The position numbers and the translations under genes were made by a program. A stretch of 64,000 nt of DNA from Thermoplasmata archaeon (GTDB lineage: Archaea; Thermoplasmatota; E2; DHVEG-1), in NCBI GenBank assembly GCA_003942085.1, contig DQIQ01000001.1, positions 24,950 through 88,949 on the forward strand, read 5' to 3'. Shown in pieces: positions 4,721 to 55,006 of the stretch. The first letter of the stretch is position 1. Each line of letters opens with the position of its first letter. The notes beneath the pieces were generated by a model. The model was not told the DNA's origin, made no database searches, and saw nothing but the letters and a program-made list of their open reading frames with translations.

Positions 4721-4782
4721 ACCGCTTTTTACCCCTTTTTTATCCAAATATTAATTAGGGAGATATTGCTATTCGAAAACAA

Positions 4783-5193
4783 ATGGATACTCTTGAAACG
4801 TTAAAAATGAAAAAACTTGAGCAACTAAAGAAGCAGTATATGAAAGGAGGGAAAACCATGGAAAAAAAAATACCAGACACCCCAATCCATCTTCTTGATG
4901 CCGATATCGATGAAACAATAAAAAAATTTCCAACGATTGTGATCGACTGTTGGGCTCCCTGGTGCGGCCCCTGCCGTATGATCGGGCCAATCATTGAAGA
5001 ACTTGCAAAAGAGATGAAGGGAAAAATCATCTTTGGAAAGTTAAACGTTGATGAAAACCCTCTCACTTCGATGAAGTATAAAATCATGAGTATTCCGACC
5101 ATGCTCGTGTTTAAAAACGGATCTTTAGTTGATCGTTTCGTTGGCGCAATGCCCAAAGAAATGCTCATGCAGAAATTAAAACCGTTTCTATAG
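4783..5193 (+). CDS. trxA: Thioredoxin. The probable real start is MEKKIPD at 4858.
   Basis: WAPWCGPCRMIGPII active site and the MSIPTMLVFKNG cis-Pro region. Confidence 0.85.
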   Translation: MDTLETLKMKKLEQLKKQYMKGGKTMEKKIPDTPIHLLDADIDETIKKFPTIVIDCWAPWCGPCRMIGPIIEELAKEMKGKIIFGKLNVDENPLTSMKYKIMSIPTMLVFKNGSLVDRFVGAMPKEMLMQKLKPFL

Positions 5194-5204
5194 CGATTTG
5201 TCCG

Positions 5205-5750
5205 GTGATGACGATTTCAGCAATAAAAAAGCTATCTGTTACCTTCCTTGTTTTTCTTTTTGTTTTTCTCAGCATTTTTACTGGTTGTACAGAAAAAAAA
5301 GGTAATGCTGGTGAGGATTTTTCGTTTACAACCTTGGACGGTAAGATGAAACATCTAAATGATTTTTATGGGAGAATTATTGTCCTTGATTGCATGGCAG
5401 TGAACTGCCAACCCTGTATGTTTCAAATGTTCGAGCTAAAAAAAGTATCAGAAAACTATTCAACAAATAATGTCACAATCCTTTCGATAGATGTCTGGGT
5501 ATCAAGTGGAGAAACCGCATCCATGCTTCAAGACACTATCGATGCTTTCAAAAACCAGGTTAACATGACGTTAGACTGGACGTTTGGACTGGATGATCCG
5601 CAAGGAACCATTCAAAACACTTACGCTTCAGCGGGAGTACCTACTCTCTATATCTTTGATAAAAAGGGAAATATTTATTACTCCCACGTGGGTTATGAAG
5701 ATTATTCAGCGCTTGCATCTCAGCTTGATCAGATGCTGAGCAAAGTATAA
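5205..5750 (+). CDS. TlpA/ResA-like thiol-disulfide oxidoreductase, a probable lipoprotein facing outside the membrane.
   Basis: The signal peptide carries a lipobox-like LSIFTGC, and the thioredoxin-like domain has a CQPC active site (VLDCMAVNCQPCMFQ). Confidence 0.7.
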   Translation: MMTISAIKKLSVTFLVFLFVFLSIFTGCTEKKGNAGEDFSFTTLDGKMKHLNDFYGRIIVLDCMAVNCQPCMFQMFELKKVSENYSTNNVTILSIDVWVSSGETASMLQDTIDAFKNQVNMTLDWTFGLDDPQGTIQNTYASAGVPTLYIFDKKGNIYYSHVGYEDYSALASQLDQMLSKV

Positions 5751-8017: not shown

Positions 8018-9403
8018 CTAAATGTAACGGGCAATAGTGTAGTTTTTCTTATCTATCATGGAGACAATGCGAGGACCCTGCGACGTATCAACAGAATCAA
8101 CTTCTTTTACAGTCACGGTCACAGCAGACCCTGTTTTTTCTTCAAATCCTTTCTTTATGAACTGAAAAATCTCTTCAACAGAAGGCCCGATGGGTCGAAG
8201 CGCTTCATCGATTACGACCTGGATTTCAAGGGTCGTCAGATCATGTTGGATGATCTTTGTGTTCTTGACCTTGTTTGTTTTTAGCTGATAGAGGATTTTA
8301 CTGTAGATTTCTGAAAATGATGAAGGAAGCAGCACGTTTCCCCCGGGAAGATAGAGCGCCAGGTCATTTCGTCCGTACACCTTCTTGATGAGTGCACCAG
8401 TCTTGCCGCACGAACAATGCCCATCAAGGGGAGCGACAATATCGTTGATCGCAGAATAGCGAATGATCGGCGTCCCATGGCTATGGAACTTTGTGATGAC
8501 CATCTCCCCTGCTTCACCAGAGGCTACCGGTTGTCCCTTTCTCAGGAACTCGGCATAGACAAGATCAGACATGAGATGATAACTGCCTTTTTTACATTGA
8601 AAACCAATGAGACCGGATTCGGTCGCCCCATAAACCTCAAAGACCTTCGCATGAAATGTCTTTTCTATAAATAATTTCAGATACGGATCAAGGACTGAGC
8701 CGGTCGCAGCGATATATCGTGGTGAAATATTATCCCCAAATCCGGACTCTTTTTGTAAAGCAAGATGACCAAGCATCCCGACGTACCCACCGATGAACGC
8801 AGGTTGAAACTCATTGATCGCGGATACGATTTTTTTTGGATCATCGTTGGTGTTCAACCATTGAATGTTTCGAAAAATCCCCGATATATTAAAACGAGGC
8901 TGCAGCCCTCTGGTGACATAGCCACTTTCGGCAGTATGCGGCGCGAAATCCCCGATTATCGTAATCCGGTCCTTCCACACGCTCATATCGTATTCATGCA
9001 ACGTCCGTATATACGCAAAAAGACCCATGACGATATCCAACATATCGACATAAATCGGAAGAACCTTACCAGTGGTTCCTGATGTTGAAACCTCGATAAG
9101 AGAACTCTTTTTTATCTTTGACGAAACAATACCATTTGGATAGTGTCGTTTGAAGTCATCTTTTGTGATACAGGGGAGTTTCTGAAGATCATCAATGCCA
9201 GCAATGTCAGATATATGAACCCCTGCTTGCTTGTATTTCTCGTGATACAGGGGCACAGTATCAGCAAATCGAACAAGCCGTCGGAGTTGTTTATCTTGAT
9301 ATCGTCGCAGAGATTCCCCACTTATTCTATCCAACCGGTCAACATCAATCAAATACCGTTTCAGAATTTTACCAAGGAACAAAGGGTTATAGAATTGATT
9401 CAT
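8018..9403 (-). CDS. Phenylacetate-CoA ligase-like (PaaK/F390-synthetase family) adenylating enzyme. The start is taken at the internal Met (MNQFYNPL).
   Basis: It has the N-terminal PaaK-family lead-in (ESLRRYQDKQLRRLVRFADTVPLYHEKYKQAGV...LPCITKDDF) and a TSGTTGK P-loop. The 76 codons upstream of the chosen Met carry no conserved signal. Confidence 0.7.
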   Translation of the reverse strand: MNQFYNPLFLGKILKRYLIDVDRLDRISGESLRRYQDKQLRRLVRFADTVPLYHEKYKQAGVHISDIAGIDDLQKLPCITKDDFKRHYPNGIVSSKIKKSSLIEVSTSGTTGKVLPIYVDMLDIVMGLFAYIRTLHEYDMSVWKDRITIIGDFAPHTAESGYVTRGLQPRFNISGIFRNIQWLNTNDDPKKIVSAINEFQPAFIGGYVGMLGHLALQKESGFGDNISPRYIAATGSVLDPYLKLFIEKTFHAKVFEVYGATESGLIGFQCKKGSYHLMSDLVYAEFLRKGQPVASGEAGEMVITKFHSHGTPIIRYSAINDIVAPLDGHCSCGKTGALIKKVYGRNDLALYLPGGNVLLPSSFSEIYSKILYQLKTNKVKNTKIIQHDLTTLEIQVVIDEALRPIGPSVEEIFQFIKKGFEEKTGSAVTVTVKEVDSVDTSQGPRIVSMIDKKNYTIARYI

Positions 9404-9476
9404 AGAGCATCCAAAGTAGAGAGGAAATAGGTACAATTCCTTAAATAGCTGTCTCTTAATTCTCCACAGAGAAGCA

Positions 9477-10781
9477 ATGAACATACTCATCGTTGAGACC
9501 GTCTGGATGGGAGGCGCACGATACAGATTCCTTGATAAGATGCTGCTCACCGCATTCTCCATTCTTCCTACCCTGCAGGCACGGGAACTTGCTGCAATCA
9601 CCCCAAAACAACATACCATATCGGTGGTCAATGAACGATACTCACAGATTGATTATGACACCGCGTATGATGCTGTTCTGATCAATTTTGTCACCTCGAC
9701 TGCCCCACGAGCCTATGCGATTGCTGACCGCTTCCGAAAAAAAGGTGTTCCCGTCATCCTTTGCGGGTTTCATGCATCTGGACTGCCTGTTGAGGCAAAA
9801 CAACATGCAGATAGCGTCCTCATCGGCAGAAACGAATACGGCTGGTTATCGGTCCTCCAGGACATACATCAGAAAAAACTACAGCCTTTCTATCAAGCAC
9901 CACCATATGATCGCACCATGCAGCTTCCTCCAACACATGTCCAGCTCCCAGGGTTCGTCATGACTGGTGCTGTGGAAGCGACAAGAGGCTGCCCGTACCA
10001 TTGTGAGTTCTGCCCTGAGACCAACATCCCAGGTGGTTCATACCTCTTCAAACGCCCGGTTGATGAAGTGATCGATGAAATCAAAAAAATTCCTCAGAAA
10101 AACCTGATGTTCTATGACACATCGCTTACCATCGACCCGTCATACACAAAAGAATTGTTCAAAAAAATGAAAGGACTGCATAAAAAATTCTTCTGCAACG
10201 GAAACGTCGATGTCTTAGCCCATGACCCGGAACTCGTATGCCTCTCCAAAGAAGCAGGATGTGTCGCATGGCTTGTCGGGTTTGAATCAATCTGCCAGAA
10301 CACTCTTCAAGCTATCGGAAAAACAACAAACGCGGTTGATGAATACGCACTGGCAGTGCAGAATATCCACACCAATCACATGGCAGTGATCGGAGAATTC
10401 ATCTTCGGATTTGATACGGACACGCCAGAGGTATTCAAAAAAACACTCACCATGATAAAAGACCTAGACATTGACGTCGTTGATTTCTCAATACTGACAC
10501 CATTCCCAGGGACCCCCCTGTTTAATAGACTTGACAGCCAGGGGAGAATCCTGACAAAAGACTGGAAGTTCTACAACATGGGACACGCGGTTTTTACACC
10601 AAGCCACATGACCCCGAAAGAACTTGAGGAAGGCGTCCGGAGCATATTTAACGAGTTTTATGAGATGTCTTTTACCATTAAAAGAATAATCCGTGGCCTC
10701 CGATGGGGCATGTACACGTTTTTGGTTATTTTCGCACGAAACCTTGTTGCGATGATGAGCAGAGGACGACTCTCCAAATGA
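9477..10781 (+). CDS. B12-binding-domain radical SAM enzyme.
   Basis: It has an N-terminal cobalamin-binding Rossmann-like domain and the radical SAM cluster motif TRGCPYHCEFCPE. It is divergent from the PaaK-like gene. Confidence 0.75.
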   Translation: MNILIVETVWMGGARYRFLDKMLLTAFSILPTLQARELAAITPKQHTISVVNERYSQIDYDTAYDAVLINFVTSTAPRAYAIADRFRKKGVPVILCGFHASGLPVEAKQHADSVLIGRNEYGWLSVLQDIHQKKLQPFYQAPPYDRTMQLPPTHVQLPGFVMTGAVEATRGCPYHCEFCPETNIPGGSYLFKRPVDEVIDEIKKIPQKNLMFYDTSLTIDPSYTKELFKKMKGLHKKFFCNGNVDVLAHDPELVCLSKEAGCVAWLVGFESICQNTLQAIGKTTNAVDEYALAVQNIHTNHMAVIGEFIFGFDTDTPEVFKKTLTMIKDLDIDVVDFSILTPFPGTPLFNRLDSQGRILTKDWKFYNMGHAVFTPSHMTPKELEEGVRSIFNEFYEMSFTIKRIIRGLRWGMYTFLVIFARNLVAMMSRGRLSK

Positions 10782-10793
10782 GAAAAAACGGGA

Positions 10794-12284
10794 TCATATA
10801 CGTGACTTAAACACGATACTTGAGGATGTTTTCTTCCCCGTGTCATCATAAACGGTGACCGTGAGCATATGTTTTTTGAGGAAGAATGATTTTAGTGTTT
10901 TCAGTTTCGTAAAGCTAAATTCGTATGGAGCTTGCGTATCATTAGACATGACGACCCCATCAATGGAAAATTCAACTTTTGCCACAGCCGAATCATCACT
11001 CGCATTCACCGTAACAATTTTCTTTCCCAACAGGACGGTCGTATTATGTAAATAATTATTGAGAATCAATCCAATTAATTTTCTTTGTTGGAGACGTTCC
11101 AGTCTTGGTTTGCCGTTCAGATAGATTTTTCCTTTCAGAGGGGACGTTATCTGTAGCTGTGGAGGTAGATTTCCTTTTTCTACTATTTTTGTAGCGTTGG
11201 TCGCATCAGCATAGTGCGCATCAAAGGGGTTCTTGCTCGGAGGCTGCGCATATCCTTGCTGCTTTTCAGAGCTAAATACCACTCCGACGATCATCAGGTT
11301 TTCATAGTCGTATGCAGAGATGTCTTTGGTTTCTGAGAATGTTAAGTTTTTATTTCCATCCACAGAGACGTCATTTATCATCAGATACTCAAGAAAACCA
11401 TAGGAAAAGGGTTTGCTATCATATCCTGTCAAATGTGACACAATCTCTGTCAAATAAAGTTTCAGTTGACCAGAATACGTATCGTTTCCCTTGTTCTCTA
11501 CTAGCGCATGAACGGTTACCTCCTGGGTGGTATTCGAATATTGTGCGGTGATGGTGACCTTGATTTTTGGGACCGTCCGTGCTTGCGCGGCTGTAATTGC
11601 CGCAGTATAGGCTGATTCAGGATTGTCTCCGCCCATGATGACCGAATATCCACCATCAATGAAGACTGTAGGGAATCCAAAGACATTGTACTCCTTAAAA
11701 AGACGATCTGCGGTTTGGGTATTGGTGGCGTTTATGAGGCTGATGTAGTAAAATCGATAATTATGGCTCTCGTAGAGGGTATGAAGGATGTTTGCGACAT
11801 TGGGGCAGTTGTTGCACCAGGTCGCGGTTGCTTCTTCGATGAATACGGTATGGATAAGGGTTTCATTCCCCGGGTTGCCTCCACCTGGATTCACCGTGAT
11901 GGTATAATATCGAGAGCCATCCATAGAAGGATCCCCGACGGGTCCGTTTCCTGCAGCGTCATCTGCAGTGATATAGTAATAATAGTTACTAGTGGCACTT
12001 GAAGGGATATCAAGGGTGGTACTCCCATTAAGGATCGATGTTGATCTCCAATCTGCTACATCAGCAGCTTTATAATATAAAGTCGCAACTGTGACGTTCA
12101 CATCATCAGTAAAAATAGCAGAAATAGTGGCGGTCTGACCCGCGGTGACCGTAAGGTTTCCTGTGATATTGTCAATCTGCGGAGGTTCTGTATCCTTGTC
12201 ACCAGTAAATACAATGACATACGCTGATGCGCCAAGGAGCATTCCTATGATGATAAGGAGTAATATTTTTCCAATTAGTCTCAT
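10794..12284 (-). CDS. Secreted or surface protein with N-terminal Ig-like domains and a thioredoxin-like CNNC domain.
   Basis: It has a signal or anchor (LLLIIIGMLLGASAYVIV), many NxT/S sequons, and an ATWCNNCPNV...FGFPTVFIDGG thioredoxin-like segment. A TATA-like element (ctttatatatt) lies upstream. Confidence 0.5.
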   Translation of the reverse strand: MRLIGKILLLIIIGMLLGASAYVIVFTGDKDTEPPQIDNITGNLTVTAGQTATISAIFTDDVNVTVATLYYKAADVADWRSTSILNGSTTLDIPSSATSNYYYYITADDAAGNGPVGDPSMDGSRYYTITVNPGGGNPGNETLIHTVFIEEATATWCNNCPNVANILHTLYESHNYRFYYISLINATNTQTADRLFKEYNVFGFPTVFIDGGYSVIMGGDNPESAYTAAITAAQARTVPKIKVTITAQYSNTTQEVTVHALVENKGNDTYSGQLKLYLTEIVSHLTGYDSKPFSYGFLEYLMINDVSVDGNKNLTFSETKDISAYDYENLMIVGVVFSSEKQQGYAQPPSKNPFDAHYADATNATKIVEKGNLPPQLQITSPLKGKIYLNGKPRLERLQQRKLIGLILNNYLHNTTVLLGKKIVTVNASDDSAVAKVEFSIDGVVMSNDTQAPYEFSFTKLKTLKSFFLKKHMLTVTVYDDTGKKTSSSIVFKSRI

Positions 12285-12479: not shown

Positions 12480-13322
12480 TTATTCTTTCAAATGATATAG
12501 ATTGTTTTTCTTTGAGATGATCTCTTCGCGTATGAGTTTTTCAAGGATCGGTTGAAGTCGTGAAGTACCGGCGCTGAGTGTTCTTTTGATATCTTTAAAA
12601 GTGACATCGTCCTGTAAAAGGATCCTGATGATACGGCCGCGCAGTTGCCGATCTGATCCTTCGAACCGAGACTGTTGTGTTTTTGGTTTTATCCCTGTCT
12701 TTTTTGATGTAAGATAGAGCGCTCCGTAATCCATTAGTGCGTTATGCCAGTCCCGGCTTTTACCCGTTGGCAGACATCGTTTTGCAAGCTCCCAGAGTGC
12801 TTTATCCGTAACCGTCTCAGGAAGTTTGAACTCTTTGATGAGTATCCGTCGGATGTTGGTATCAACCGTGATTAGATCAGCGTTTGTTGAAAAGATCTGC
12901 ACTGCCTGCGACGTGTATTTCCCAACACCAGGGACATCCTTGTATTGTTTCATTGCCTTTATCACGTCACCTTCATACTTTGCAACAATTTTTCGAGCAG
13001 CTTTATGCAGATTTACCGCCCTGGTGTTGTAACCCAAACCCATCCAGGCCTCTAACACCTCAGGAAGCGAAGCTGCGGCAAGCGCATCAATAGTTGGCCA
13101 TCTGGTTATCCATTTCTCATAATACAACAATGCTCGGTTCACCTGTGTCTGTTGCAGCATAAGCTCAGAGAGGAGGATCTTGTATGGATCAAACGTCTTG
13201 CGCCAGGGCAGCTTTCGTCTGTGTTTTTTATAAAAAGAAAAAACTTTTTTTTGGAGCCGCTGGATTTTTTCCTGCGGGAGGTCTTTTAAATCAATCGTCG
13301 AAGTAATCCTGGGAGCAGGCAT
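12480..13322 (-). CDS. HhH-GPD family DNA glycosylase (Nth/MutY-like, no 4Fe-4S motif) with a C-terminal winged-helix-like tail.
   Basis: The LSELMLQQTQV helix, the HhH segment LPEVLEAWMGLGYNTRAVNLHKAA and the VPGVGKYTSQAV GPD loop are present. Confidence 0.65.
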   Translation of the reverse strand: MPAPRITSTIDLKDLPQEKIQRLQKKVFSFYKKHRRKLPWRKTFDPYKILLSELMLQQTQVNRALLYYEKWITRWPTIDALAAASLPEVLEAWMGLGYNTRAVNLHKAARKIVAKYEGDVIKAMKQYKDVPGVGKYTSQAVQIFSTNADLITVDTNIRRILIKEFKLPETVTDKALWELAKRCLPTGKSRDWHNALMDYGALYLTSKKTGIKPKTQQSRFEGSDRQLRGRIIRILLQDDVTFKDIKRTLSAGTSRLQPILEKLIREEIISKKNNLYHLKE

Positions 13323-13420
13323 AGTTTTTTTGATAATTACCTATGTTATTAATATGATTTTTGCTTGATTCATTATTTGGGAAGGTTTTTGAATGTTTGT
13401 TGTATAAAGATACCTCTCTT

Positions 13421-14332
13421 ATGAAACGATATAACCTTACTCATCTGCAGAAACTTGAAGCAGAATCAATCTACGTCATCCGTGAGGTCGCTGCACAATT
13501 CGAACGACCGGTGCTGCTCTTCTCAGGTGGAAAAGACTCAATCGTTCTTGGACATCTTTCCCGAAAGGCATTTTATCCTGCGAAAATCCCCTATCCTTTT
13601 CTGCATATTGATACCGGACATAACTTCCCTGAAGTACTCCTTTTCAGAGATGCTTTTGCAAAAAACCTTGACATCAGAATACTTGTTGGCTCTGTTCAAC
13701 GATCCATTGACACCGGACGGGTCAAAGAAGAAACCGGAAAACATGCGAGCCGGAACTATCTTCAGTCGATCACGCTGCTTGACACCATCCATGAGTATAA
13801 ATTCGACGCGGCAATCGGTGGCGGGCGAAGGGATGAGGAAAAATCCCGTGCCAAAGAACGATTCTTCTCTCATCGCAATGATTTTGGACAATGGGACCCG
13901 AAAAACCAACGGCCTGAGCTATGGGATCTCTACAATGGACGAAAACACCATGGTGAACATTTCCGGGTATTTCCGTTGAGCAACTGGACTGAGCTTGATA
14001 TCTGGCAGTACATCCTCAAAGAACACATTCAGATCCCTCTGATTTATTTCTCCCATACCCGAGACTGTATCATCCGGGACGGTGTCATCTACGCTTACTC
14101 TGACTACCTCCATCTTGATGATGCTGAAAAGAAAACAGTACAACCCATGACGGTTCGGTTCCGCACGGTCGGAGACATGACTTGTACAGGGGCAGTACAA
14201 TCAAAGGCACATACGCTTGAAGACATCGTCCGAGAGGTCGCTACCTATCGCATCTCAGAACGGGGAACCCGAGCTGACGACCGTCGATCGGAAAACTCTC
14301 TTGAGGACCGGAAAAAGGAGGGATACTTCTAG
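13421..14332 (+). CDS. cysD: Sulfate adenylyltransferase subunit 2.
   Basis: LEAESIYVIREVAAQFERPVLLFSGGKDS PP-loop. It is followed 2 nt later by cysN. Confidence 0.85.
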   Translation: MKRYNLTHLQKLEAESIYVIREVAAQFERPVLLFSGGKDSIVLGHLSRKAFYPAKIPYPFLHIDTGHNFPEVLLFRDAFAKNLDIRILVGSVQRSIDTGRVKEETGKHASRNYLQSITLLDTIHEYKFDAAIGGGRRDEEKSRAKERFFSHRNDFGQWDPKNQRPELWDLYNGRKHHGEHFRVFPLSNWTELDIWQYILKEHIQIPLIYFSHTRDCIIRDGVIYAYSDYLHLDDAEKKTVQPMTVRFRTVGDMTCTGAVQSKAHTLEDIVREVATYRISERGTRADDRRSENSLEDRKKEGYF

Positions 14333-14334
14333 CA

Positions 14335-15644
14335 TGGATGAAAAAAGCTATCTTGATATGGATCTACTTCGATTCACCACTGCTGGAAGCGTTGATGACG
14401 GAAAAAGCACGCTGATCGGCAGGCTTCTTTACGACAGTAAAACCCTCTTTGAGGACCAGCTGGAAAACCTAGAGCGACTGAGCCAGCAACGCGGCGAAGA
14501 ACTCAACCTTGCCTTGCTCACCGATGGCCTGCGGGCAGAACGAGAACAAGGGATCACCATCGATGTCGCATATCGATACTTTGCAACCCCGGTTCGAAAA
14601 TTCATCATCGCAGACACCCCTGGCCACATCCAGTATACCCGCAACATGGTTACCGGAGCATCTACGGCGAACCTTGCATTGATCCTTGTGGACGCTCGTA
14701 ATGGAGTCACCGAACAAACCCACCGTCATATTTTCCTTGCCTCGCTCCTCCAGATCCCACACTTCGCCATCTGCATAAACAAGATGGATCTTGTCAGCTA
14801 CAAACAAGCGATATATGACGCCATCAAAAACGAAATACAGGATTTCATCTCAAAGCTCGCAGTCCCAGATATCACGTTCATTCCTATCAGTGCGTTACTT
14901 GGCGATAACGTGGTCCATGCCTCAAAAAACATGCAGTGGTATCATGGTCCTACCTTGCTATACCATCTTGAAGACGTCCACATCGGCAGTGACGAAAACC
15001 TTGTCGATTGTCGGTTCCCCGTCCAATTTGTCATCAGACCACGATCCGACACTTACCATGATTACCGAGGGTACGCAGGAAAAATCGCAAGCGGGATCTT
15101 CAAACCTGGGGACAGTGTCACTATTCTTCCATCCGGTTTTTCGACGACGATCAAATCGATTGAAGGCCCACAAGGAGAAATCACTGAAGCGTTCCCTCCG
15201 ATGTCTGTCGTCATGCAGCTCACTGACGATCTTGATATCAGCCGCGGGGATATGCTTGTCCGCCAGCATAACACTCCTTTTATCGGTCAGAACCTTGATT
15301 TCATGATCTGCTGGATGAACATAAAACCACTCACCGCGGGGACCAGGTACATTGTACGCCACACTACCAGGGAAACAAAAGGGATAATCAAAGAGATCCA
15401 ATATAAAATCGATATCAACACGTTGCATCGGATCCCTGATGCAACAAAGCTAGAGCTCAACGAAATCGGACGTATCTCGATGAGAACGGCACAACCATTG
15501 TTCTATGATAGTTATCAGCATAATCGAGCCACTGGCAGCATCATCCTCATCGATGAAACAACCAATGAGACGGTTGGTGCAGGGATGATCCGGGAACCTT
15601 CCGCTGCTGTTTCTGAAAAGAAAAAAAAGGAACAAGAAAAATGA
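14335..15644 (+). CDS. cysN: Sulfate adenylyltransferase subunit 1 (GTPase).
   Basis: The GTPase motifs are FTTAGSVDDGKST G1, DTPGH and NKMD. Its stop overlaps the cysC start (ATGA). Confidence 0.85.
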
Positions 15645-16177
15645 ACAAACATCAGGGTTTCACTATCTGGTTTACAGGTCTGCCCTGCTGCGGAAAAACA
15701 ACCATCGCAGACCAATTAGCCATACTTCTAAAAAAGAAGGATTACATGGTAGAACGACTCGATGGTGATATCGTTCGCCAGGGCTTTGCCAATGATCTCG
15801 GTTTTTCGGAAAAAGACAGAGATGAAAATATCAAACGAGTCACTTTTATTGCAAAAATGCTCACCCGTAACAACGTAGTGGTGCTCGCAAGCTTTGTATC
15901 ACCGTACAAAAAACAACGAAGAAAAGCACGAAAGGAAATAAAAAATTTCATCGAAGTGTATGTAAAATGCCCTGTGAAGATCTGCATGAAGCGCGACGTC
16001 AAAGGCATGTACCAAAAAGCCCTTGAAGGAAAAATCAAGCATTTCACGGGTGTCGATGATCCGTACGAAGAACCTGAGCATCCGGAGCTCATCCTGAATA
16101 CCGATACAGAATCCGTTGAAGAAAGCGTCAGAAAGGTTTTAGAAAAAATAGAAGAACTCGGGTATATCACCCGGTAA
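15641..16177 (+). CDS. cysC: Adenylylsulfate (APS) kinase.
   Basis: FTIWFTGLPCCGKTTIA P-loop. It is translationally coupled to cysN. Confidence 0.85.
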   Translation: MNKHQGFTIWFTGLPCCGKTTIADQLAILLKKKDYMVERLDGDIVRQGFANDLGFSEKDRDENIKRVTFIAKMLTRNNVVVLASFVSPYKKQRRKARKEIKNFIEVYVKCPVKICMKRDVKGMYQKALEGKIKHFTGVDDPYEEPEHPELILNTDTESVEESVRKVLEKIEELGYITR

Positions 16178-16186
16178 GGAAAAGAC

Positions 16187-17152
16187 ATGGGAATCAACCC
16201 CGATGAAGAATTCCTCCAGGATCTACAGCAGGTTTCCTTCCAACCGGTTTTTATCCTCGGGCTGCATCGTTCAGGAACCAGTATTTTATACAAGATGCTC
16301 TCCGCGACAGGGTCCTTTAATCCGGTCACCGCGTATCATCTAATCAATTACCATGAACTGCTTGCAAATCATCATCTGAAAAAGGAAGAAGCTGCAAAAC
16401 AGCACCTGACGCAATCATTCAAAAATAAAGGCTTGACGGACAGAGGAATTGACCAATTGAAACTAACCGCGGATTTTGCAGAAGAATACGGGTTTCTCCT
16501 CAATACCCGGACCATGCAGATGTTCCTTACCAGAAAAAACGTCGCACTCTTTACAGAGATGTGCAAAAAAATCCAGTACATCGCAGGGAATGACAAACCA
16601 ATCCTTCTTAAGAATCCCTATGATTTTCTGAATTTCCTCTCCATCAAACAGGTGTTCCCCAACGCCAGATTTGTTTTTATCCATCGCCATCCGCTCAAGA
16701 CCATAAGTTCGACATTGAACGCCATCCGGATGATATTGAACGAAAAAAACCCATATACTGCACGGTTGTCCAGGTTATATGACAGATCCTATGACAATCC
16801 CCTGCTGCTTTGGCCGCTTCGGTTCATCTTTTGCACCATCCCAGAATGGGGCGTGGTCCTTATCACCAGAATCACTGCAAAAGCGGTAAAGTATTATCTG
16901 AAAAATATTGAGAAATTACCGTCAGAGGATTACCTCTCCATTACCTATGAAGAGCTATGTGAACATCCGCAGGAAACTTTGGAATACATCATGGAAAGAC
17001 TGTCCCTGCGCATGAGCGAAAAAGTCGATGTCGCATCACTTATGAGCCCGCGTACCGTAGACGTCGATGGTTCTGTTCAAAAACTTCGAGTATATATCTA
17101 TAAGTCAATGAAGTCTTATTTTGATATGTTTCATTATCTGAGAGAGGGATAG
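16187..17152 (+). CDS. PAPS-dependent sulfotransferase family protein.
   Basis: PVFILGLHRSGTSILYKML is the 5'-PSB loop of sulfotransferases and FVFIHRHPLKTISS is a 3'-PB-like motif. It sits directly downstream of cysDNC, and no cysH is present. Confidence 0.65.
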   Translation: MGINPDEEFLQDLQQVSFQPVFILGLHRSGTSILYKMLSATGSFNPVTAYHLINYHELLANHHLKKEEAAKQHLTQSFKNKGLTDRGIDQLKLTADFAEEYGFLLNTRTMQMFLTRKNVALFTEMCKKIQYIAGNDKPILLKNPYDFLNFLSIKQVFPNARFVFIHRHPLKTISSTLNAIRMILNEKNPYTARLSRLYDRSYDNPLLLWPLRFIFCTIPEWGVVLITRITAKAVKYYLKNIEKLPSEDYLSITYEELCEHPQETLEYIMERLSLRMSEKVDVASLMSPRTVDVDGSVQKLRVYIYKSMKSYFDMFHYLREG

Positions 17153-17169
17153 GAGAGAATTACTTCTTT

Positions 17170-18216
17170 TTATTTGTGTACGTTTTGGATTTCCTGCTCG
17201 ATTCTTGCTAAGATTTTATTCTGATTCCCGGCATCGTACCGCTGCAGGTTTTCATAATAGAATCCTAGGTTGGATAAGAAGTGTCGAAGGTCGTCTTCAC
17301 AGAACTTCTGGTGTGAAATCCCGACACCCAACCGCTCGATACATCTTGCATTGAAAACTTGTTCAAACTGATGGCGGATCGGTAATGAAAAAATCGGTTT
17401 CTTCAGATATAATGCTTCACTAATGACGGTAAAACCACCGTTCACCATCACTGCTTTCGAAGATGCGATATCGTGATAAAACTCATCTTCGTTGAATCGT
17501 TTAAAAATCAGATTCCCCGTAGTTATTTCTCTGTTGAAGCCGTAAATGACAAACGTTTCATCGAACTTTTTCAGAGAATCAAAAAGATATGTAAAGGACA
17601 GTGATGTTTGATAGACAAAGATGTGATCCTCAGATGTTGACGTATGACTCCGTATCCCTGGTTGAATCAATGGTTTTGAAAATAACACCTGGGGATTATT
17701 GATTTGTTCATCGAAAAAATCATAGATGATGTATTTATCAGCGCCGAAAAGAGATAATTTTAATGCGAAAAATAGGAAAAGCCAAGAGGGATATTCCCTT
17801 TTTTTTATCGGATACTTCCGATAGAGTAACGCAGAGGGATTGTCAATGCTTATCCGTTTAATACCGCTGAATCGTGCAGCAAAATGACTAATTGGTTCAG
17901 CATCGGTGATGAGAAGATCAGGTTGAAACTCTTTCATAAGATGCCTGACTTTGAAGAATGAAACCGGGGTGCGGACCATCGTTTTATACAAGTTATGCAG
18001 GAGTGTGTAGAGTATCCTTACTTGATTGCATTGGTAGAATGCTTGTGGCGATTCAACCTTAAGGACTTGGTCAAACTCTTTTGATAACACCGAATAGGCT
18101 TTCCCGCCTGCGATAATGTAAACCTCATGACCATGTTGTTGGAGAAAACGGATCAGTATTCGACTGCGGCTTGCATGCCCCAGTCCTTCCCCGCAGACAC
18201 CATAGAGAATCTTCAT
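17170..18216 (-). CDS. GT-B fold glycosyltransferase (GT28/MGT-like). The start is taken at MKILYGV.
   Basis: N-terminal YGVCGEGLGHASRSRIL and C-terminal MVNGGFTVISEALYLKKPIFSLP are typical of the MurG/MGT GT-B family. It is convergent with the sulfotransferase. Confidence 0.6.
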   Translation of the reverse strand: MKILYGVCGEGLGHASRSRILIRFLQQHGHEVYIIAGGKAYSVLSKEFDQVLKVESPQAFYQCNQVRILYTLLHNLYKTMVRTPVSFFKVRHLMKEFQPDLLITDAEPISHFAARFSGIKRISIDNPSALLYRKYPIKKREYPSWLFLFFALKLSLFGADKYIIYDFFDEQINNPQVLFSKPLIQPGIRSHTSTSEDHIFVYQTSLSFTYLFDSLKKFDETFVIYGFNREITTGNLIFKRFNEDEFYHDIASSKAVMVNGGFTVISEALYLKKPIFSLPIRHQFEQVFNARCIERLGVGISHQKFCEDDLRHFLSNLGFYYENLQRYDAGNQNKILARIEQEIQNVHK

Positions 18217-18272
18217 AAAATCTCTCCCCGCATGAAAGTCTCTAACCATTTTTTTATTAATAAATCCTTTTG

Positions 18273-19505
18273 TTATAATATTCTGTGAAACGGGAAATCC
18301 TGATACCCGATTACTCCGACCCATATAGTTTGATTGAACCCCGGGATTGTTATGTTCGCTCGTAAAATCAGTTGAAGCCGATCAGGAAGCAATCGTTCCC
18401 CAAAACGAGGCCAAAGTTGAGATAACGGGATAAGCATATCCCCTTGGAGAATCGTGGTATTCTGTGAAGAGATAACACCGTCAGCCAATGTACCGTTGCT
18501 TAACAGTCGCGTCTTGTTTCTATCAATCCGATATATTTTCACAGTGATATCAGTCGCCAGGAACGTCAGTTTATTCGGATTTTTTATCTCGAAAATGATC
18601 TGATCATGTAATCCTCCTCTAATAGTGTATTTGTATTTACCGGTAAGAGACGCATCGGTTGGGAGATCTGAAAGAAGCTTTTCGAGACGAGGGGGAACGA
18701 TGTCTGCATCCACGGTAAGGTTCATTGATTTTCTGATGCCTGCAACGAAGACGGTAATATCACCATGTAGGGTCATTCGCAGTGTCTTTGCATCTAATGC
18801 CTTCAGCAGCAGCTGTCCGCTTCCTGCCAGTTGTTGAGATGTTTTTGCAGGGATCATTTTTCCAGGGATTGTGACGGTTCCTACCTGAGTCCCTGTTTCA
18901 GTTTCAACGTTTGCAGAGAGGTTTTCTATCGCCATGTCAATCGAGTACGGGTTGGTGATTTCCAGGATACCGGTAAAGTTTACACCTTCTTGGGTGATTT
19001 CGCTAAAGTTACCCGCCAGGTAGATTTGAGGGAGTGTAAATTGATCAATGATATTGTTCAGAGAGGTAATCATCGAGAATTTCAGGGGAAGCGTTTTCTT
19101 TATTAATCCAAGGAACAGAACACCGACCGTTCCGGTGATTCTACTCGTCAGTTGATTGGGAATTGTCCCGTTGAATTGTATGGTTGCTGTCGAGGTAAAC
19201 GTCCTGTTTTCATGTGAGCGGGTCTCCCCGCCTTCTATGAAGAGGTTGTTGATGACATCCCCGCTGTCGGTCATTGTGACTATCGTGATGTTTTGTACAA
19301 ATATGGAGAATGGATTTTGGTTGTTGACCCAGAGCGTTGTCTGGAGCACTGCTTCGTTTGCATCAAGATCGATAAGCTTGAGTGCTATGGTTGTTTCCGG
19401 GAGATTCATGGTCTGAATATCAAGAAAAATAAATGCTCCTGCTATGATATTGAGGATTGTAGCTGAAACTAAGATAATCACTATTAATTTTTTCATAGCT
19501 CCCAT
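18273..19505 (-). CDS. Membrane-anchored protein with three LEA-2/WHy-like repeats.
   Basis: It has an N-terminal anchor followed by three roughly 120-aa modules with an (I/L)xNPN...(I/V)x(I/V) pattern, for example FEIKNPNKLTFLATDITVKIY. This is a weak similarity call. Confidence 0.3.
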   Translation of the reverse strand: MGAMKKLIVIILVSATILNIIAGAFIFLDIQTMNLPETTIALKLIDLDANEAVLQTTLWVNNQNPFSIFVQNITIVTMTDSGDVINNLFIEGGETRSHENRTFTSTATIQFNGTIPNQLTSRITGTVGVLFLGLIKKTLPLKFSMITSLNNIIDQFTLPQIYLAGNFSEITQEGVNFTGILEITNPYSIDMAIENLSANVETETGTQVGTVTIPGKMIPAKTSQQLAGSGQLLLKALDAKTLRMTLHGDITVFVAGIRKSMNLTVDADIVPPRLEKLLSDLPTDASLTGKYKYTIRGGLHDQIIFEIKNPNKLTFLATDITVKIYRIDRNKTRLLSNGTLADGVISSQNTTILQGDMLIPLSQLWPRFGERLLPDRLQLILRANITIPGFNQTIWVGVIGYQDFPFHRIL

Positions 19506-19613
19506 TATTGAAATAAAATACCTATATTTATAAGATATTTCCTATATTAATATACTTTTCTTACGATAACAGCAAAAAAACAAGAATATATAGGAGGATT
19601 CCTTAGCGACAGT

Positions 19614-20825
19614 CTATAGTAATCCGAAACGATCCTTCAGGTAGACTGAGATAAAACGTAGCGAAAGTTTTCGCCAAATGGTCTTCATGCTATCAAGAGT
19701 GAGAATATGTCTCATCGCGATATCAACCAGTTGTTTGTCTTTTTCGAAAAGCCGCATGATGTTGTCTTCTCCCATCCCCCAATGTTGTGACAAGCGGAAG
19801 AAACGTTTATTATTTTTTCCAAAATCATTTCTCCAACGAACAGGATATGACGAGATAACCATTTTGTTCTTCGGATTAGAATCTAAGGCTTCTGTGATGA
19901 CCTTTGCGGCGATCTCTCCTGATACCATCGCGTTGTAGATGCCTTCACCGGTGAGTGGATTGACCATCCCTGCGGCATCCCCACAGATAAATGCTCTCTG
20001 AAGGGCTGTTCGTTGAACTGGGTATGTTGGGAAAACCCCTCCTTTAGGATTTTTAATCTTAAGATTCGACGGTATGATCTTGGTTTCTTTAAGAGTTTTC
20101 AAATAATTTTCATAGATTTCCTTGATGTTCTTCTTCTCGTTTCTTGAACCGATCGCCTGTCGAAACTCGCAGATACCGATATTAACATGTTTGTGCTTAG
20201 GAAATACCCATCCGTACCCAGCGACTCCCAGTGCATTCATATGGATGTGAACCCGTCTTTTTTCGCTGAAAAACTGATCAAGCGTTCTTTTACTTAAGGG
20301 ATGTTCTTCGAAAACACATACACCAATATTCCTACAACTCTGACGAGTCCCCAGCTGTTTTCCGATCGAACCCCACATACCGTCGGCCACGATCACATAA
20401 TTTGATTCGATTTCAGTTCCATCAGTGAGAACGAGGCGTGATTTCTCCTCAGACATCTTAACATTTTTTACCGTTTTTCCCGCAAGAAGCGTCGCACCAC
20501 TTCGTGTCGCAAGATTTACAAGTCCCGCATCAAACTTTTTCCTCAGGATCATAGCTACAATTGGCTCATTTTTTTGTATATCTACGTTATATTTCGAAGC
20601 AAAAGAATGAAGGCTTACCTCATAAGAGAAGGAATCCACGAGACCATTTTCTTCGATATATCTGTATCTCTTTAACACCCGAGCAGGCAATCCTCCGCCA
20701 CAGGGTTTATCCCGGGGAAAAGTACTTTTATCAAGAAGAAGGACGCGCATTCCTTTTTCTGAAAGAAATTTTGCTGCGGTCGAACCTGCAGGTCCAGCTC
20801 CTATCACGACAACATCATATCTCAT
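19614..20825 (-). CDS. FAD-dependent geranylgeranyl reductase family oxidoreductase.
   Basis: MRYDVVVIGAGPAGSTAAKFLSEKGMRVLLLDK dinucleotide fold plus the PCGGG motif. Confidence 0.7.
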   Translation of the reverse strand: MRYDVVVIGAGPAGSTAAKFLSEKGMRVLLLDKSTFPRDKPCGGGLPARVLKRYRYIEENGLVDSFSYEVSLHSFASKYNVDIQKNEPIVAMILRKKFDAGLVNLATRSGATLLAGKTVKNVKMSEEKSRLVLTDGTEIESNYVIVADGMWGSIGKQLGTRQSCRNIGVCVFEEHPLSKRTLDQFFSEKRRVHIHMNALGVAGYGWVFPKHKHVNIGICEFRQAIGSRNEKKNIKEIYENYLKTLKETKIIPSNLKIKNPKGGVFPTYPVQRTALQRAFICGDAAGMVNPLTGEGIYNAMVSGEIAAKVITEALDSNPKNKMVISSYPVRWRNDFGKNNKRFFRLSQHWGMGEDNIMRLFEKDKQLVDIAMRHILTLDSMKTIWRKLSLRFISVYLKDRFGLL

Positions 20826-23015: not shown

Positions 23016-23540
23016 TTAGAGTAGCAAGAGCAATCCATAATAGTTTTGAGTGCAACTATGGTCAGAAACCACTTCGATGGGAAACCCTGCAACTCTAGCC
23101 GTCTGGAAGACATCTATGCCACAAGCTTCCATGGAAGGGCGTGCTTCTTCGGTATGCTTGCAGCCTTTTTCCACATTACATTTTTCACACAGAACGCAGG
23201 GGCCTGCACTCATACCAAATGCCTTATAATATCCTGAGAGAAACGCCTCACGTTCAAGGGTTGAGACAATGCTTTTCATATCGGTCCATTCCTTTGATGG
23301 GAGATGTATCAAGATAGCGGTTTTGTACTCATCGAGCATTCGTCGTGTCTCTTGTGGTGTAGGAGAGTACGGAGGACAGGTGAGATGTTCGCTATAACCG
23401 TCACAGCCGTATTGACATTTTCGTCGGACCCACTCCGCGGTAAAGACCTGTTGTGGAGTAATCAGCTTTGCATCTTTTGCTCCCAATTCACATGCTCTGC
23501 GTATGAAATACTTTGATGGAGGAAGGGATTTTTCACTCAT
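23016..23540 (-). CDS. Cys-rich predicted metal-binding protein (DUF2284-like). The start is taken at MSEKSLP.
   Basis: It has several Cx2C/Cx3C groups (CQYGCDGY, CPPY, CVLCEKCNVEKGC). Confidence 0.4.
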   Translation of the reverse strand: MSEKSLPPSKYFIRRACELGAKDAKLITPQQVFTAEWVRRKCQYGCDGYSEHLTCPPYSPTPQETRRMLDEYKTAILIHLPSKEWTDMKSIVSTLEREAFLSGYYKAFGMSAGPCVLCEKCNVEKGCKHTEEARPSMEACGIDVFQTARVAGFPIEVVSDHSCTQNYYGLLLLL

Positions 23541-23647
23541 CGACTTAGAAATGATGATTCGTGATTTAAATGAATCTGTACAAAGTGCAAGTGATGGATT
23601 TGAACACGAGAGTATCGGTAAGACCATTAATGATGGTGAGAATTCTT

Positions 23648-54538: not shown

Positions 54539-54547
54539 GAGATCAAG

Positions 54548-55006
54548 ATGAAAACGATCGTGCTTGGTATTGGAAACCCAATATTGCAGGATGACGGCGT
54601 TGGCATCCATGTCATCGATGCACTACGACCGCACATTACCAACCCGATGGTAACCGTAGATTCTGCATACACCGGAGGAATGAATCTCCTGGACATGATC
54701 CGTGGTTACGAGAAGGTCATCTTAATCGATGCAATCAAACAAGAAGGCAGCAGGCCAGGTGCGGTGAAACGATTCTTGCTTTCTGATGCACCGACCGTCC
54801 ATTCCTGTAACCCTCATGATGTATCGCTGTCTGAAGCGCTGCGTCTTGCAAAACAAATTGGAGAAAAGCATCTCCCCAGTGAAATCGTGGTCATTGGTAT
54901 TGTCGTGAAAAACACCTTTGATTTTGGAGAGCGTCTCAGCAAAGAGGTCGCCTCCGCGGTACCAAACGCAGTAACCATGGTACTAGATGAATTGAAAAAC
55001 ACCTAG
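54548..55006 (+). CDS. Hydrogenase maturation endopeptidase (HycI/HoxM family).
   Basis: [22 protein letters not shown] is the conserved N-terminus of this family. Confidence 0.7.

Follow-up and report, generated by a model that had tools for sequence, protein, structure and literature searches.

A predicted four-gene operon leading from PAPS synthesis to a sulfotransferase (ST) is present in an uncultured sediment archaeon of the Thermoplasmatota (order Thermoprofundales/MBG-D), and on balance it is best read as a PAPS source dedicated to glycoside sulfation, with an isoprenoid glycolipid as the likeliest acceptor. The target sugar probably sits on a membrane lipid or a lipid-linked glycan; the main rival acceptor is a lipid-linked N-glycan precursor. 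A dedicated PAPS set with an ST is a known kind of system (cf. NodPQ-NodH and the mycobacterial CysDNC-Stf); the archaeal member is new here. In the proposed pathway cysD, cysN, cysC and the ST gene would form one transcription and translation unit, with PAPS made and used on the spot. CysDN would adenylate sulfate to APS in a GTP-driven step, CysC would phosphorylate APS to PAPS, and a soluble cytoplasmic ST would move the sulfo group onto a hydroxyl of a sugar that the neighbouring glycosyltransferase (GT) would have put on a membrane isoprenoid carrier. The outcome at the cell surface would most likely be a sulfated glycolipid, or else a lipid-linked sugar carrying sulfate. The pathway would be non-assimilatory in this lineage, because the lineage appears to be without PAPS reductase and sulfite reductase and lives in sulfidic sediment. 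If true, this reading would account for a sulfate-assimilation pathway of which the lineage has the first half only. The features concerned are listed in Table 1, with positions in the window, the whole 64-kb stretch analysed.

Table 1. Features of the window in and around the cysDNC-ST genes
Feature	Position	Strand	Profile matches and remarks
Intergenic region, AT-rich	13323..13420	.	Between divergent HhH-GPD glycosylase gene and cysD; TATA-like runs ttgataatta, ttattaatat, tgtataaag
cysD, sulfate adenylyltransferase small subunit, 303 aa	13421..14332	+	NF003587 440 bits (cutoff 195)
cysN, sulfate adenylyltransferase GTPase subunit, 436 aa	14334..15644	+	TIGR02034 537 bits (cutoff 336)
cysC, APS kinase, 178 aa	15641..16177	+	NF002059 248 bits (cutoff 244); TIGR00455 231 bits (cutoff 139); PF01583 206 bits
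PAPS-dependent ST, 321 aa, Sulfotransfer_3 family	16187..17152	+	PF13469 88.7 bits (cutoff 27)
Convergent spacer, 17 nt, T-run (cttcttttt)	17153..17169	.	Between ST stop and GT stop
MJ1255/VC2487-family GT-B glycosyltransferase, 348 aa, soluble	17170..18216	-	TIGR00661 208 bits (cutoff 196); PF13528 262 bits
Membrane-anchored protein, three LEA_2-type beta-sandwich domains, 410 aa	18273..19505	-	PF03168 36 bits (cutoff 25)
Geranylgeranyl-reductase-family flavoprotein (GGR)	19614..20825	-	TIGR02032 220 bits (cutoff 159)

The four genes lie head to tail, and the positions given to the genes in an earlier note on this DNA are borne out by profile matches and translations. CysD has the PP-loop SGGKDS and also matches TIGR02039 (414.5 bits, cutoff 396.6) and PF01507 (144 bits). 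CysN is not fused to CysC and has the GTPase motifs GSVDDGKST (G1), DTPGH (G3) and NKMD (G4). The geometry described earlier as translational coupling of cysD, cysN and cysC stands for the ATGA overlap of cysN and cysC, but the supposed 2-nt gap between cysD and cysN is 1 nt (TAG c ATG), and the gap between cysC and the ST gene is 9 nt rather than 10. SD-like motifs precede cysN (AGGAGG, 9 nt upstream) and the ST gene. The AT-rich region before cysD is presumed to be the promoter region of the unit, and the T-run behind the ST gene may act as an oligo-T archaeal terminator. For the MJ1255-family GT, the gene callers choose the start that gives the 348-aa version.

The comparison set comprised 80 related genomes, with 47 ortholog loci at which the ST is at least 44% identical. 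Linkage to cysDNC, counted where cysNC lies no more than 7 kb upstream of the ST gene, is confined to the closest clade, where it is found at 10 of the 13 loci whose ST reaches 64% identity and whose flank is long enough. The cysD-cysN-cysC string is linked to an orthologous ST in nine other species-level genomes, and the 1-nt cysD/cysN junction is identical in 8-9 relatives; since string and junction recur in this way, the arrangement is beyond chance. CysD is 86-92% identical in relatives. The 9-nt gap between cysC and the ST gene recurs at locus L003 (ST 77% identical). These two genes are adjacent in the window, L003 and L034; elsewhere GGR, DUF2284 and a GT2 gene stand between them, the GGR homolog being 47-49% identical to that of the window, and the linkage persists despite such rearrangements. 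At 44-63% identity, ST orthologs lack cysDNC in the 10 kb around them, so the ST needs no linked PAPS supply.

The ST belongs to an orthologous group that extends across the Thermoplasmatota. Invariant in the ortholog alignment are the 5'-PSB H27-R28-S29-G30-T31-S32, the motif K142-N143-P144 and the 3'-PB R167...S175, all of which align with the same motifs of TPST1. The RSGT loop pointed out earlier is present, although in its full reading, GLHRSGTS, it is of the Arg type (TPST/Stf-like) and not of the Lys type. The best fold matches to the AF2 model of the ST (pLDDT 88.9) are Stf9, Stf1, TPST, the CurM ST and 3-OST, all of them PAPS-dependent STs. The retained motifs and the modelled fold support a predicted competence for PAPS binding. 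H51 and E99/E100 are candidates for the catalytic base; in one ortholog, position 51 is Y. No TM segment was found in the ST, which is predicted to be soluble and cytoplasmic. The ST of the window matches no NCBIfam model, that of NodH included. A homolog, P0073, is named 'LPS sulfotransferase NodH' in one JGI record.

The acceptor class is suggested by the genes beside the ST. A GT is adjacent at 36 of the 47 loci; a membrane GT2/GT21-like enzyme stands beside the ST at 27, and orthologs of the MJ1255 GT-B directly follow it at 14. The convergent GT-B glycosyltransferase reported in the earlier note is confirmed by its TIGR00661 and PF13528 matches, and the proposal of a glycoconjugate as target is strengthened, as GTs are the most conserved neighbours of the ST and a GT1-ST fusion protein exists (P0257). 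The GT2 neighbour has the hopanoid glycosyltransferase HpnI as its best family match (112 bits, full length), and its best solved relatives are PcManGT (6yv7, E 5.5e-07) and ceramide glucosyltransferase. Isoprenoid-lipid enzymes (GGR paralog and/or UbiA prenyltransferase) are found at 16 of the 47 loci and an FkbM-type methyltransferase at four. None of the GT, LEA_2, GGR/UbiA or FkbM partners stands beside 34 more distant ST paralogs. Less favourable to a glycoside acceptor, the window has the MJ1255 GT only, with no HpnI-like GT2 and no UbiA, and at L003, where cysDNC adjoins the ST, no GT lies within 7 kb. The GGR of the window is a paralog and not the housekeeping lipid reductase; it scores only 107-113 bits against the DGGGPL-reductase equivalogs (cutoffs 580-780). 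The ASST that the earlier note had drawn into the same picture (55671-57485) does match PF05935 (96 bits), but it lies 38 kb from the operon, its family is PAPS-independent, and a functional link to the operon is unsupported.

The second commonest neighbour, after the GT2/GT21-like GT, is the LEA_2 protein, beside the ST at 25 of the 47 loci. Its earlier description as LEA-like is upheld by the PF03168 match, and its AF2 model has a TM helix (2-31) and three beta-sandwiches. Its 12 sequons compare with an expectation of 4.1, and 11 of them keep their positions in 15 or more of 22 orthologs; such a conserved, sequon-rich neighbour is no less suited to an N-glycan target. In that case the PAPS supply and the ST would be unchanged but would act on a dolichol- or polyprenol-phosphate-linked sugar bound for the N-glycan of surface glycoproteins, with the LEA_2 protein as dedicated carrier, in parallel to the sulfated N-glycans of Halobacterium salinarum. 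We consider this acceptor rather unlikely. PcManGT, an archaeal GT2 implicated in N-glycan synthesis, would fit it, as would the GGR paralogs, a kind of enzyme known to saturate archaeal dolichol. Sulfated archaeal N-glycans are also documented (PMC11625862). Against it, no AglB/STT3 motif ORF, flippase, multi-GT agl-type cluster or recurrent N-glycosylation family was found near any of the 47 loci, where the ST has no more than one or two GTs beside it. HpnI acts directly on a lipid alcohol, and bacterial homologs of the ST (37-43% identity) adjoin UDPGT/EryCIII-like enzymes of GT1, typical of lipophilic small-molecule acceptors. P450s, a PapA-like acyltransferase and an ACP also stand beside these homologs.

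That the PAPS serves sulfation and not assimilation, as first proposed from the gene order, is supported by the tight geometry, the conserved linkage, the ST motifs and fold, the lack of local reductive genes and a published survey. Window ORFs of at least 150 aa and the genes called within 10 kb beyond each end show no domain of cysH or sulfite reductase (about 84 kb for these reductive genes), and none of a sulfate transporter or PAP phosphatase; the lack of the latter two nearby counts against the proposed pathway. Thermoprofundales MAGs have the sulfate-to-PAPS steps, and CysH and CysJI were reported missing from all eight MAGs studied, including SM1-50 and M11B2D, although the authors themselves read the genes that are present as assimilatory (Zhou et al. 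2019, PMC6461988). SM1-50 and M11B2D both carry a linked cysDNC-ST locus (L012, L013). Ordinary assimilatory activation, in which PAPS would pass to a canonical CysH or a non-canonical reductase elsewhere and the ST would be unrelated or a minor consumer, appears improbable. It would agree with cysDNC as the standard bacterial assimilatory set and with the unlinked ST orthologs of more distant relatives; gene absences from MAGs, which are incomplete, carry little weight, and a non-canonical PAPS/APS reductase has reportedly been described in a methanogen (the assimilatory variant of Methanothermococcus thermolithotrophicus). It accords poorly with the conserved 9-nt junction, with a linkage that survives rearrangement in 10 species-level genomes, and with the several ST paralogs per genome in these archaea, which imply a real PAPS demand; assimilation would also be unnecessary in sulfidic sediment. 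CysDN and CysC are the first two enzymes of assimilatory sulfate reduction (CysDN-CysC-CysH-CysJI) too, but here the ST lies directly 3' of cysC in place of the reductive half.

By sequence, the closest solved enzymes are the protein-tyrosine sulfotransferases TPST1/2 (E 2e-6), which counts against a glycoside. A non-sugar acceptor, either an isoprenoid or quinone with a hydroxyl group or, in the manner of TPST/RaxST, a protein or peptide tyrosine, would also suit the P450s beside bacterial homologs, an ST-P450 fusion (P0254), and GGR (MenJ-like match, 119 bits) and UbiA neighbours fit for prenylquinone chemistry; sulfomenaquinone of Mycobacterium tuberculosis is made by Cyp128-Stf3. We nevertheless give it little credence, as the recurrent partner at the archaeal loci is a GT and not a P450, the neighbourhood has no conserved gene for a RiPP or precursor peptide, and the TPST likeness is limited to the PAPS-binding motifs (Arg-type 5'-PSB PRSGTT vs HRSGTS, N-K-D-P vs K-N-P, 3'-PB R...S) at 13-14% identity, with the fold nearer to Stf9/Stf1 (TM 0.43-0.48 vs 0.60-0.64). 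TPSTs, as type-II membrane enzymes of the lumen, modify acidic peptides of the secretory route, whereas the archaeal ST is predicted to be cytoplasmic.

As a PAPS supply for glycoside sulfation, the operon resembles rhizobial NodP-NodQ (CysD-CysN/CysC homologs) with the ST NodH, which sulfate the Nod-factor lipo-chitooligosaccharide. Both link a CysD/CysN/CysC-type set to a PAPS-dependent ST; independence from sulfur assimilation, and the sugar of a lipid-bearing glycoconjugate as acceptor, would be shared by the archaeal operon. The rhizobial genes are bacterial and lie on a symbiosis plasmid or island, and NodQ is a CysN-CysC fusion, whereas the archaeal genes are separate. Xanthomonas RaxPQ-RaxST is another dedicated cassette of PAPS set and ST. 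In mycobacteria, CysDNC and Stf enzymes provide for the sulfation of envelope glycolipids and isoprenoids, Stf0 serving sulfolipid-1 and Stf3 sulfomenaquinone. In structure, the ST model comes closest to Stf9 (2z6v, TMq 0.64) and Stf1 (2zq5, TMq 0.60), at only 15-16% identity. The PapA-type acyltransferase and P450s beside bacterial homologs are a further likeness; the archaeal partners (MJ1255 GT, HpnI-like GT2, LEA_2, GGR, UbiA) have no mycobacterial counterpart, and mycobacteria also have the full assimilatory branch. The mycobacterial 'glycolipid sulfotransferase' Rv1373 acts on glycolipids (PMC13141999). A literature search for an archaeal sulfotransferase paper found none, so comparison with haloarchaea stays at the product level. 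Their sulfated glycolipids (S-DGD-1, S-TGD-1) and the N-glycans of H. salinarum carry O-sulfate on isoprenoid lipids or lipid-linked glycans and so fall in the class of product put forward for the operon, although in a different phylum and habitat. The sulfo-sugar of Thermoplasma acidophilum has a C-S bond, a chemistry different from O-sulfation.

The gene for the PAPS-type sulfotransferase (ST) is the last of a four-gene unit, cysD-cysN-cysC-ST, and the family assignments of all four products are, as judged from sequence, unambiguous. CysD and CysN have the features of a heterodimeric ATP sulfurylase, CysD being a PP-loop ATP pyrophosphatase and CysN an EF-Tu-like GTPase encoded directly beside it, and CysC is a P-loop kinase that scores above the curated cutoffs for APS kinase. 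Since CysD reached only 24-45 bits with the CysH/PAPS-reductase models (cutoffs 154-254), it is not a reductase. ST itself gave no NCBIfam match in the profile search. The gene order and ATGA overlap described in an earlier note on this DNA were recovered, the ATGA being common to the end of cysN and the start of cysC, whereas its gap sizes are revised: the cysD stop codon TAG is followed after 1 nt, not 2, by the ATG of cysN, with AGGAGG upstream, and the cysC stop lies 9 nt, not 10, before the ST start. The four genes are presumably co-transcribed. A scan of 13200-19700 for bacterial-type promoters and terminators gave chance-level counts (15 versus 12.0±3.4 and 10 versus 6.1±2.9), the model being the wrong one for an archaeon. 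The ST locus appears in the assemblies of three independent public data sets.

Features of the window discussed in the text, with coordinates, strand and principal evidence
Feature	Coordinates	Strand	Evidence
PaaK/F390-synthetase-like ligase	8018-9631	-	
B12-type radical SAM protein	9477-10781	+	best NCBIfam match HpnJ, 106 bits, under cutoff
Big_7 surface protein	10794-12284		thioredoxin-like region
cysD	13421-14332	+	NF003587 440 bits (cutoff 195); TIGR02039 414.5 bits (cutoff 396.6); PP-loop SGGKDS
cysN	14334-15644	+	TIGR02034 537 bits (cutoff 336); GSVDDGKST, DTPGH, NKMD = G1/G3/G4
cysC	15641-16177	+	PF01583 206 bits; NF002059 248 bits (cutoff 244); TIGR00455 231 bits (cutoff 139); P-loop GLPCCGKTT
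ST	16187-17152	+	PF13469 88.7 bits
MJ1255-family GT-B glycosyltransferase	17170-18216	-	TIGR00661 207.9 bits (cutoff 195.9); PF13528 262 bits
LEA_2 protein	18273-19505	-	PF03168 36.3 bits (cutoff 25.4)
GGR-family gene	19614-20825	-	TIGR02032; far under housekeeping DGGGPL-reductase models
DUF2284 metal-binding protein	23016-23627	-	
2202-aa protein	33037-39645	+	N-terminal signal/anchor-like segment; 92 sequons vs 39.7 expected
[NiFe]-hydrogenase small and large subunit, HycI protease cluster	52083-55006		
ASST-family protein	55671-57485	+	PF05935 96 bits

The PAPS is likely made here for sulfation and not for assimilation; this was the core of the earlier note, and the operon and its conservation support it. 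Domains of PAPS/APS reductase, sulfite reductase, sulfate transporter and PAP phosphatase were found neither in any ORF of 150 aa or more within the 64-kb window nor among the genes called up to 10 kb beyond either end. CysH and sulfite reductase, which together define an assimilatory pathway, are thus absent from the surroundings of the unit, as had been noted, a result that covers the window plus 10 kb on each side. In most of the eight MAGs of the order Thermoprofundales (MBG-D) surveyed by Zhou et al. 2019 (PMC6461988), the sulfate-APS-PAPS genes were reported to be present while 'CysH and CysJI are missing'; the genes were read there as sulfate assimilation, and a sulfotransferase is nowhere mentioned. 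Nearly all homologs of ST at 54-77% identity come from MAGs of Thermoplasmatota, among them 'Thermoplasmatales archaeon SM1-50' and 'Thermoplasmata archaeon M11B2D', both of which are Thermoprofundales/MBG-D genomes (Zhou et al. 2019, PMC6461988). The cysDNC-ST linkage is present in these two MAGs of that survey (loci L012 and L013).

A scan with an ST profile, covering one genome per GTDB species, yielded 80 loci, which were analysed by tblastn and clustering of neighbours. Of the 13 loci that have enough upstream sequence and an ST of 64% identity or higher, 10 have cysNC linked to ST; cysNC directly adjoins ST in the window and in the related loci L003 and L034, and lies 2.7-4.6 kb upstream in the seven others, with a geranylgeranyl-reductase family (GGR) gene, a DUF2284 gene and a GT2 glycosyltransferase gene between. 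The eight relatives in which the cysD/cysN junction is readable all have the same 1-nt junction, and the 9-nt gap between cysC and ST recurs in L003. No cysDNC was found within 10 kb of ST orthologs of 44-63% identity, and cysDNC was therefore added, in one clade, to a module that is older. The G+C content is 0.472 in the cysDNC stretch (14001-16000) and 0.415-0.44 in its flanks, and among relatives CysD and CysN are 86-92% identical, versus 64-77% for the flanking ST and 63-78% for HhH-GPD; composition and high protein conservation could reflect either strong constraint or a bacterial-type cassette gained by the clade. The DUF2284 metal-binding protein recurs near the ST module: in six relatives (L007, L008, L009, L011, L015, L018) its gene separates cysC/GGR from the GT2 gene, and in the window it has moved to the far side of the module.

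The ST orthologs share a mean column identity of 65% in the alignment. The 5'-PSB motif (H27-R28-S29-G30-T31-S32) is invariant in 22 orthologs, aligns with GVPRSGTT of TPST1 and lies in the model where strand 20-25 is followed by helix 28-40. The motif K142-N143-P144 is invariant as well, and so are R167 and S175 of the 3'-PB (IHRHPLKTISS), which lie eight residues apart and align with RDGRASVHS of TPST1. The earlier note had reasoned that an ST lacking the conserved catalytic Lys/Ser would refute its reading; the PAPS-binding residues are retained in all three elements. In a PDB profile search the PAPS motifs aligned with those of TPST1/2 (E 2e-6), the CurM ST and mycobacterial Stf1. The AF2 model (pLDDT 88.9, pTM 0.88) was searched with Foldseek, and all 50 matches listed are PAPS/PAP-binding proteins of the sulfotransferase fold, 30 of them at E <= 0.001; the top two were M. 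avium Stf9 (TMq 0.64) and M. tuberculosis Stf1 (TMq 0.60), followed by TPSTs, the CurM/OLS STs and the heparan-sulfate 3-O and N-sulfotransferases. Candidate catalytic bases are H51, nearly invariant (Y in the family member P0075), and the invariant E99/E100, which are located in a model loop of lower confidence. The sequence contains neither a transmembrane segment nor sequons, and ST is therefore predicted to be cytoplasmic, where PAPS is made. An identity as TPST, the best PDB sequence match, was considered and discarded in view of topology, fold score and gene context: TPSTs are type-II membrane/lumenal enzymes with a peptide-binding cleft, whereas ST has no transmembrane segment and resembles them in three short motif stretches only (TMq 0.43-0.48 at 13-14% identity).

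The glycosyltransferase (GT) of the window converges on ST across a 17-nt T-rich spacer and belongs to the MJ1255 family (TIGR00661, PF13528), its residues 38-356 matching profile positions 1-315 of 321 of TIGR00661; the convergent GT-B and the LEA-like envelope protein after it, both seen in the earlier reading, were confirmed. A sequence search of this GT against solved structures gave nothing below E 0.4, and no paper characterising the MJ1255 family was found in the literature searched. The GGR gene of the window falls far short, in score, of the housekeeping DGGGPL-reductase models and is hence a specialised paralog. In the older module, counted over the 47 loci in which ST has 44% identity or more, a GT stands next to ST in 36, the LEA_2 protein adjoins it in 25, and a GGR paralog and/or a UbiA-family prenyltransferase occurs in 16, a GNAT in seven and an FkbM-type methyltransferase in four. 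None of these partners stands beside any of the 34 more distant ST paralogs, the neighbours of which are TauE/SafE permeases, arrays of B12-radical-SAM protein and PaaK-like ligase, or C25 peptidases. The commonest adjoining GT is a membrane GT2 (27 loci) that matches Glyco_transf_21. Among the NCBIfam models it fits that of the hopanoid glycosyltransferase HpnI best (112 bits, full length), and among solved structures it is closest to the archaeal PcManGT and to ceramide glucosyltransferase. Lipids are the acceptors of both HpnI and ceramide glucosyltransferase. Both GT types are present in five loci, and by tblastn the HpnI-like GT2, UbiA and TauE of the relatives' loci are absent from the 64-kb window. 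In a clade of 52-61% identity (L019-L022, L024, L025, L031, L033), a conserved Big_7 surface protein of about 950 aa precedes the ST-GT-LEA_2 module, together with a secreted alpha/beta hydrolase (PETase-like match), an FkbM-type methyltransferase and sometimes UbiA; the window carries a different Big_7 surface protein.

An exhaustive profile search of the ST family gave 232 clusters of sequences at 50% identity (E <= 1e-30). Cyanobacterial and Bryobacterales homologs (37-43% identity) adjoin GT1 glycosyltransferases of UDPGT/EryCIII type, with cytochrome P450s, a PapA-type acyltransferase, ACP, a ketoreductase and a sulfatase as further neighbours, and these bacterial loci (L047, L064, L068, L078) look like clusters for sulfated glycolipids or natural products. 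Two bacterial proteins among these clusters are apparent fusions: P0257 (728 aa) joins GT1 to ST, and P0254 (658 aa) joins ST to a cytochrome P450. The GT1-ST fusion and the adjacency of GT and ST in both bacteria and archaea point to a glycoside made by the partner GT as the probable substrate of ST, in line with the glycoconjugate target proposed before.

In the proposed pathway, CysDN would adenylate sulfate at the expense of GTP, CysC would phosphorylate the APS, and ST would move the sulfo group from PAPS onto a hydroxyl of a sugar placed on an isoprenoid lipid by the adjoining GT (MJ1255 type in the window, HpnI-like GT2 in most relatives). The lipid part would be tailored by the GGR paralog and UbiA, and the sulfated product would be displayed at the membrane surface. 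A GT product is, on balance, the favoured acceptor of ST; that it is specifically a glycolipid is a tentative proposal, with chances somewhat below even.

Less probably, the ST module may instead decorate a lipid-linked glycan destined for proteins such as the LEA_2 protein. The LEA_2 protein, identical to NCBI DSN98_00265, is modelled as an N-terminal transmembrane helix (residues 2-31) followed by three beta-sandwich domains; the only matches in a fold search were generic Ig-like stalks (integrin legs, transglutaminase barrels), which gave no functional lead, so the family name says nothing on function here. It contains 12 sequons (N-x-S/T) where 4.1 are expected; 11 of these keep their alignment position in 15 or more of 22 orthologs, which include sequences as distant as 44% identity, and N384-I-T is present in all 22. 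Because of this excess and positional conservation, the LEA_2 protein is probably a conserved surface N-glycoprotein, and such a neighbour fits a lipid-linked glycan. Against this stands a local search in which the AglB motif WWDxG occurred in no ORF near any of the 80 loci or in the window region, and neither STT3 nor a flippase is among the 25 most frequent families listed from 120 other neighbour ORFs. Clusters of AglB/STT3, a flippase and several Dol-P-dependent GTs with a modifying enzyme were accordingly not found near the ST loci; agl genes could lie elsewhere in these genomes. Positional conservation of sequons to this degree is unusual for an archaeal surface protein. A giant protein of 2202 aa, also encoded in the window, is probably a surface protein with heavy N-glycosylation.

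The proposed sulfation by ST of a glycoside from its partner GT follows a principle already well known from bacteria, that of a dedicated PAPS cassette coupled to a sulfotransferase, and the same logic applies to NodPQ-NodH of rhizobia, CysDNC with the Stf enzymes of mycobacteria and RaxPQ-RaxST of Xanthomonas. Distinctive for the archaeal unit is the partner set of MJ1255 GT, HpnI-like GT2 and 3xLEA_2 protein. Haloarchaea make sulfated glycolipids and sulfated N-glycans (for the N-glycans, PMC11625862), and cysDNC and PAPS for sulfotransferases receive no more than a passing mention in a paper on Marine Group II. The literature searched yielded no study of an archaeal sulfotransferase and no characterised enzyme for haloarchaeal S-DGD biosynthesis.

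Thermoprofundales (MBG-D) are uncultured archaea that rank among the most abundant groups of marine sediment and among the commonest of anoxic sediments. For these organisms the operon and its conservation offer a simpler, testable reading, in which PAPS would serve an ST working with GTs and isoprenoid-lipid enzymes. There is nearly an even chance, though just short of it, that the ST-GT-LEA_2 module, with cysDNC in one clade, represents the first genetically defined archaeal pathway to an O-sulfated glycolipid or glycan and a lineage-wide envelope trait of Thermoprofundales/MBG-D, the genes of 'incomplete assimilatory sulfate reduction' then belonging to envelope sulfation. If true, this reading predicts a sulfated isoprenoid glycolipid, a possible biomarker for the uncultured lineage that could be searched for in sediment lipidomes. 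It would also name candidate genes for archaeal sulfated glycoconjugates and set right a mis-annotation that recurs when the metabolism of sediment archaea is reconstructed, where a half-pathway is called assimilation.

The earlier note had tied the secreted ASST-family protein to the PAPS operon, a link that found no support. The ASST family is PAPS-independent, and the gene is 38 kb from the operon, just downstream of the hydrogenase cluster and an FlpD-like gene. The gene callers place its start at a TTG 36 codons in, which gives a hydrophobic N-terminus of the type MKKILFTFV.

Many of the MAGs contain two or more ST paralogs. Distant paralogs of Thermoplasmatota (39-43% identity) are directly followed by a convergent TauE/SafE permease (PF01925, 129 bits) in 10 loci (L051, L053, L055, L058, L062, L063, L065 at 4728-5516, L069, L072, L076), several of which also carry a C25 peptidase. 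These loci represent a second conserved module around ST, distinct from the first. In the window, the PaaK/F390-synthetase-like ligase and the B12-type radical SAM protein are located 5.4 kb upstream of ST. Their longest ORFs share about 155 nt, so that one of the two starts probably lies further downstream. Arrays of PaaK-like ligase and B12-radical-SAM protein occur directly beside ST paralogs of 40-45% identity in six other genomes (L045, L046, L048, L052, L056, L061).
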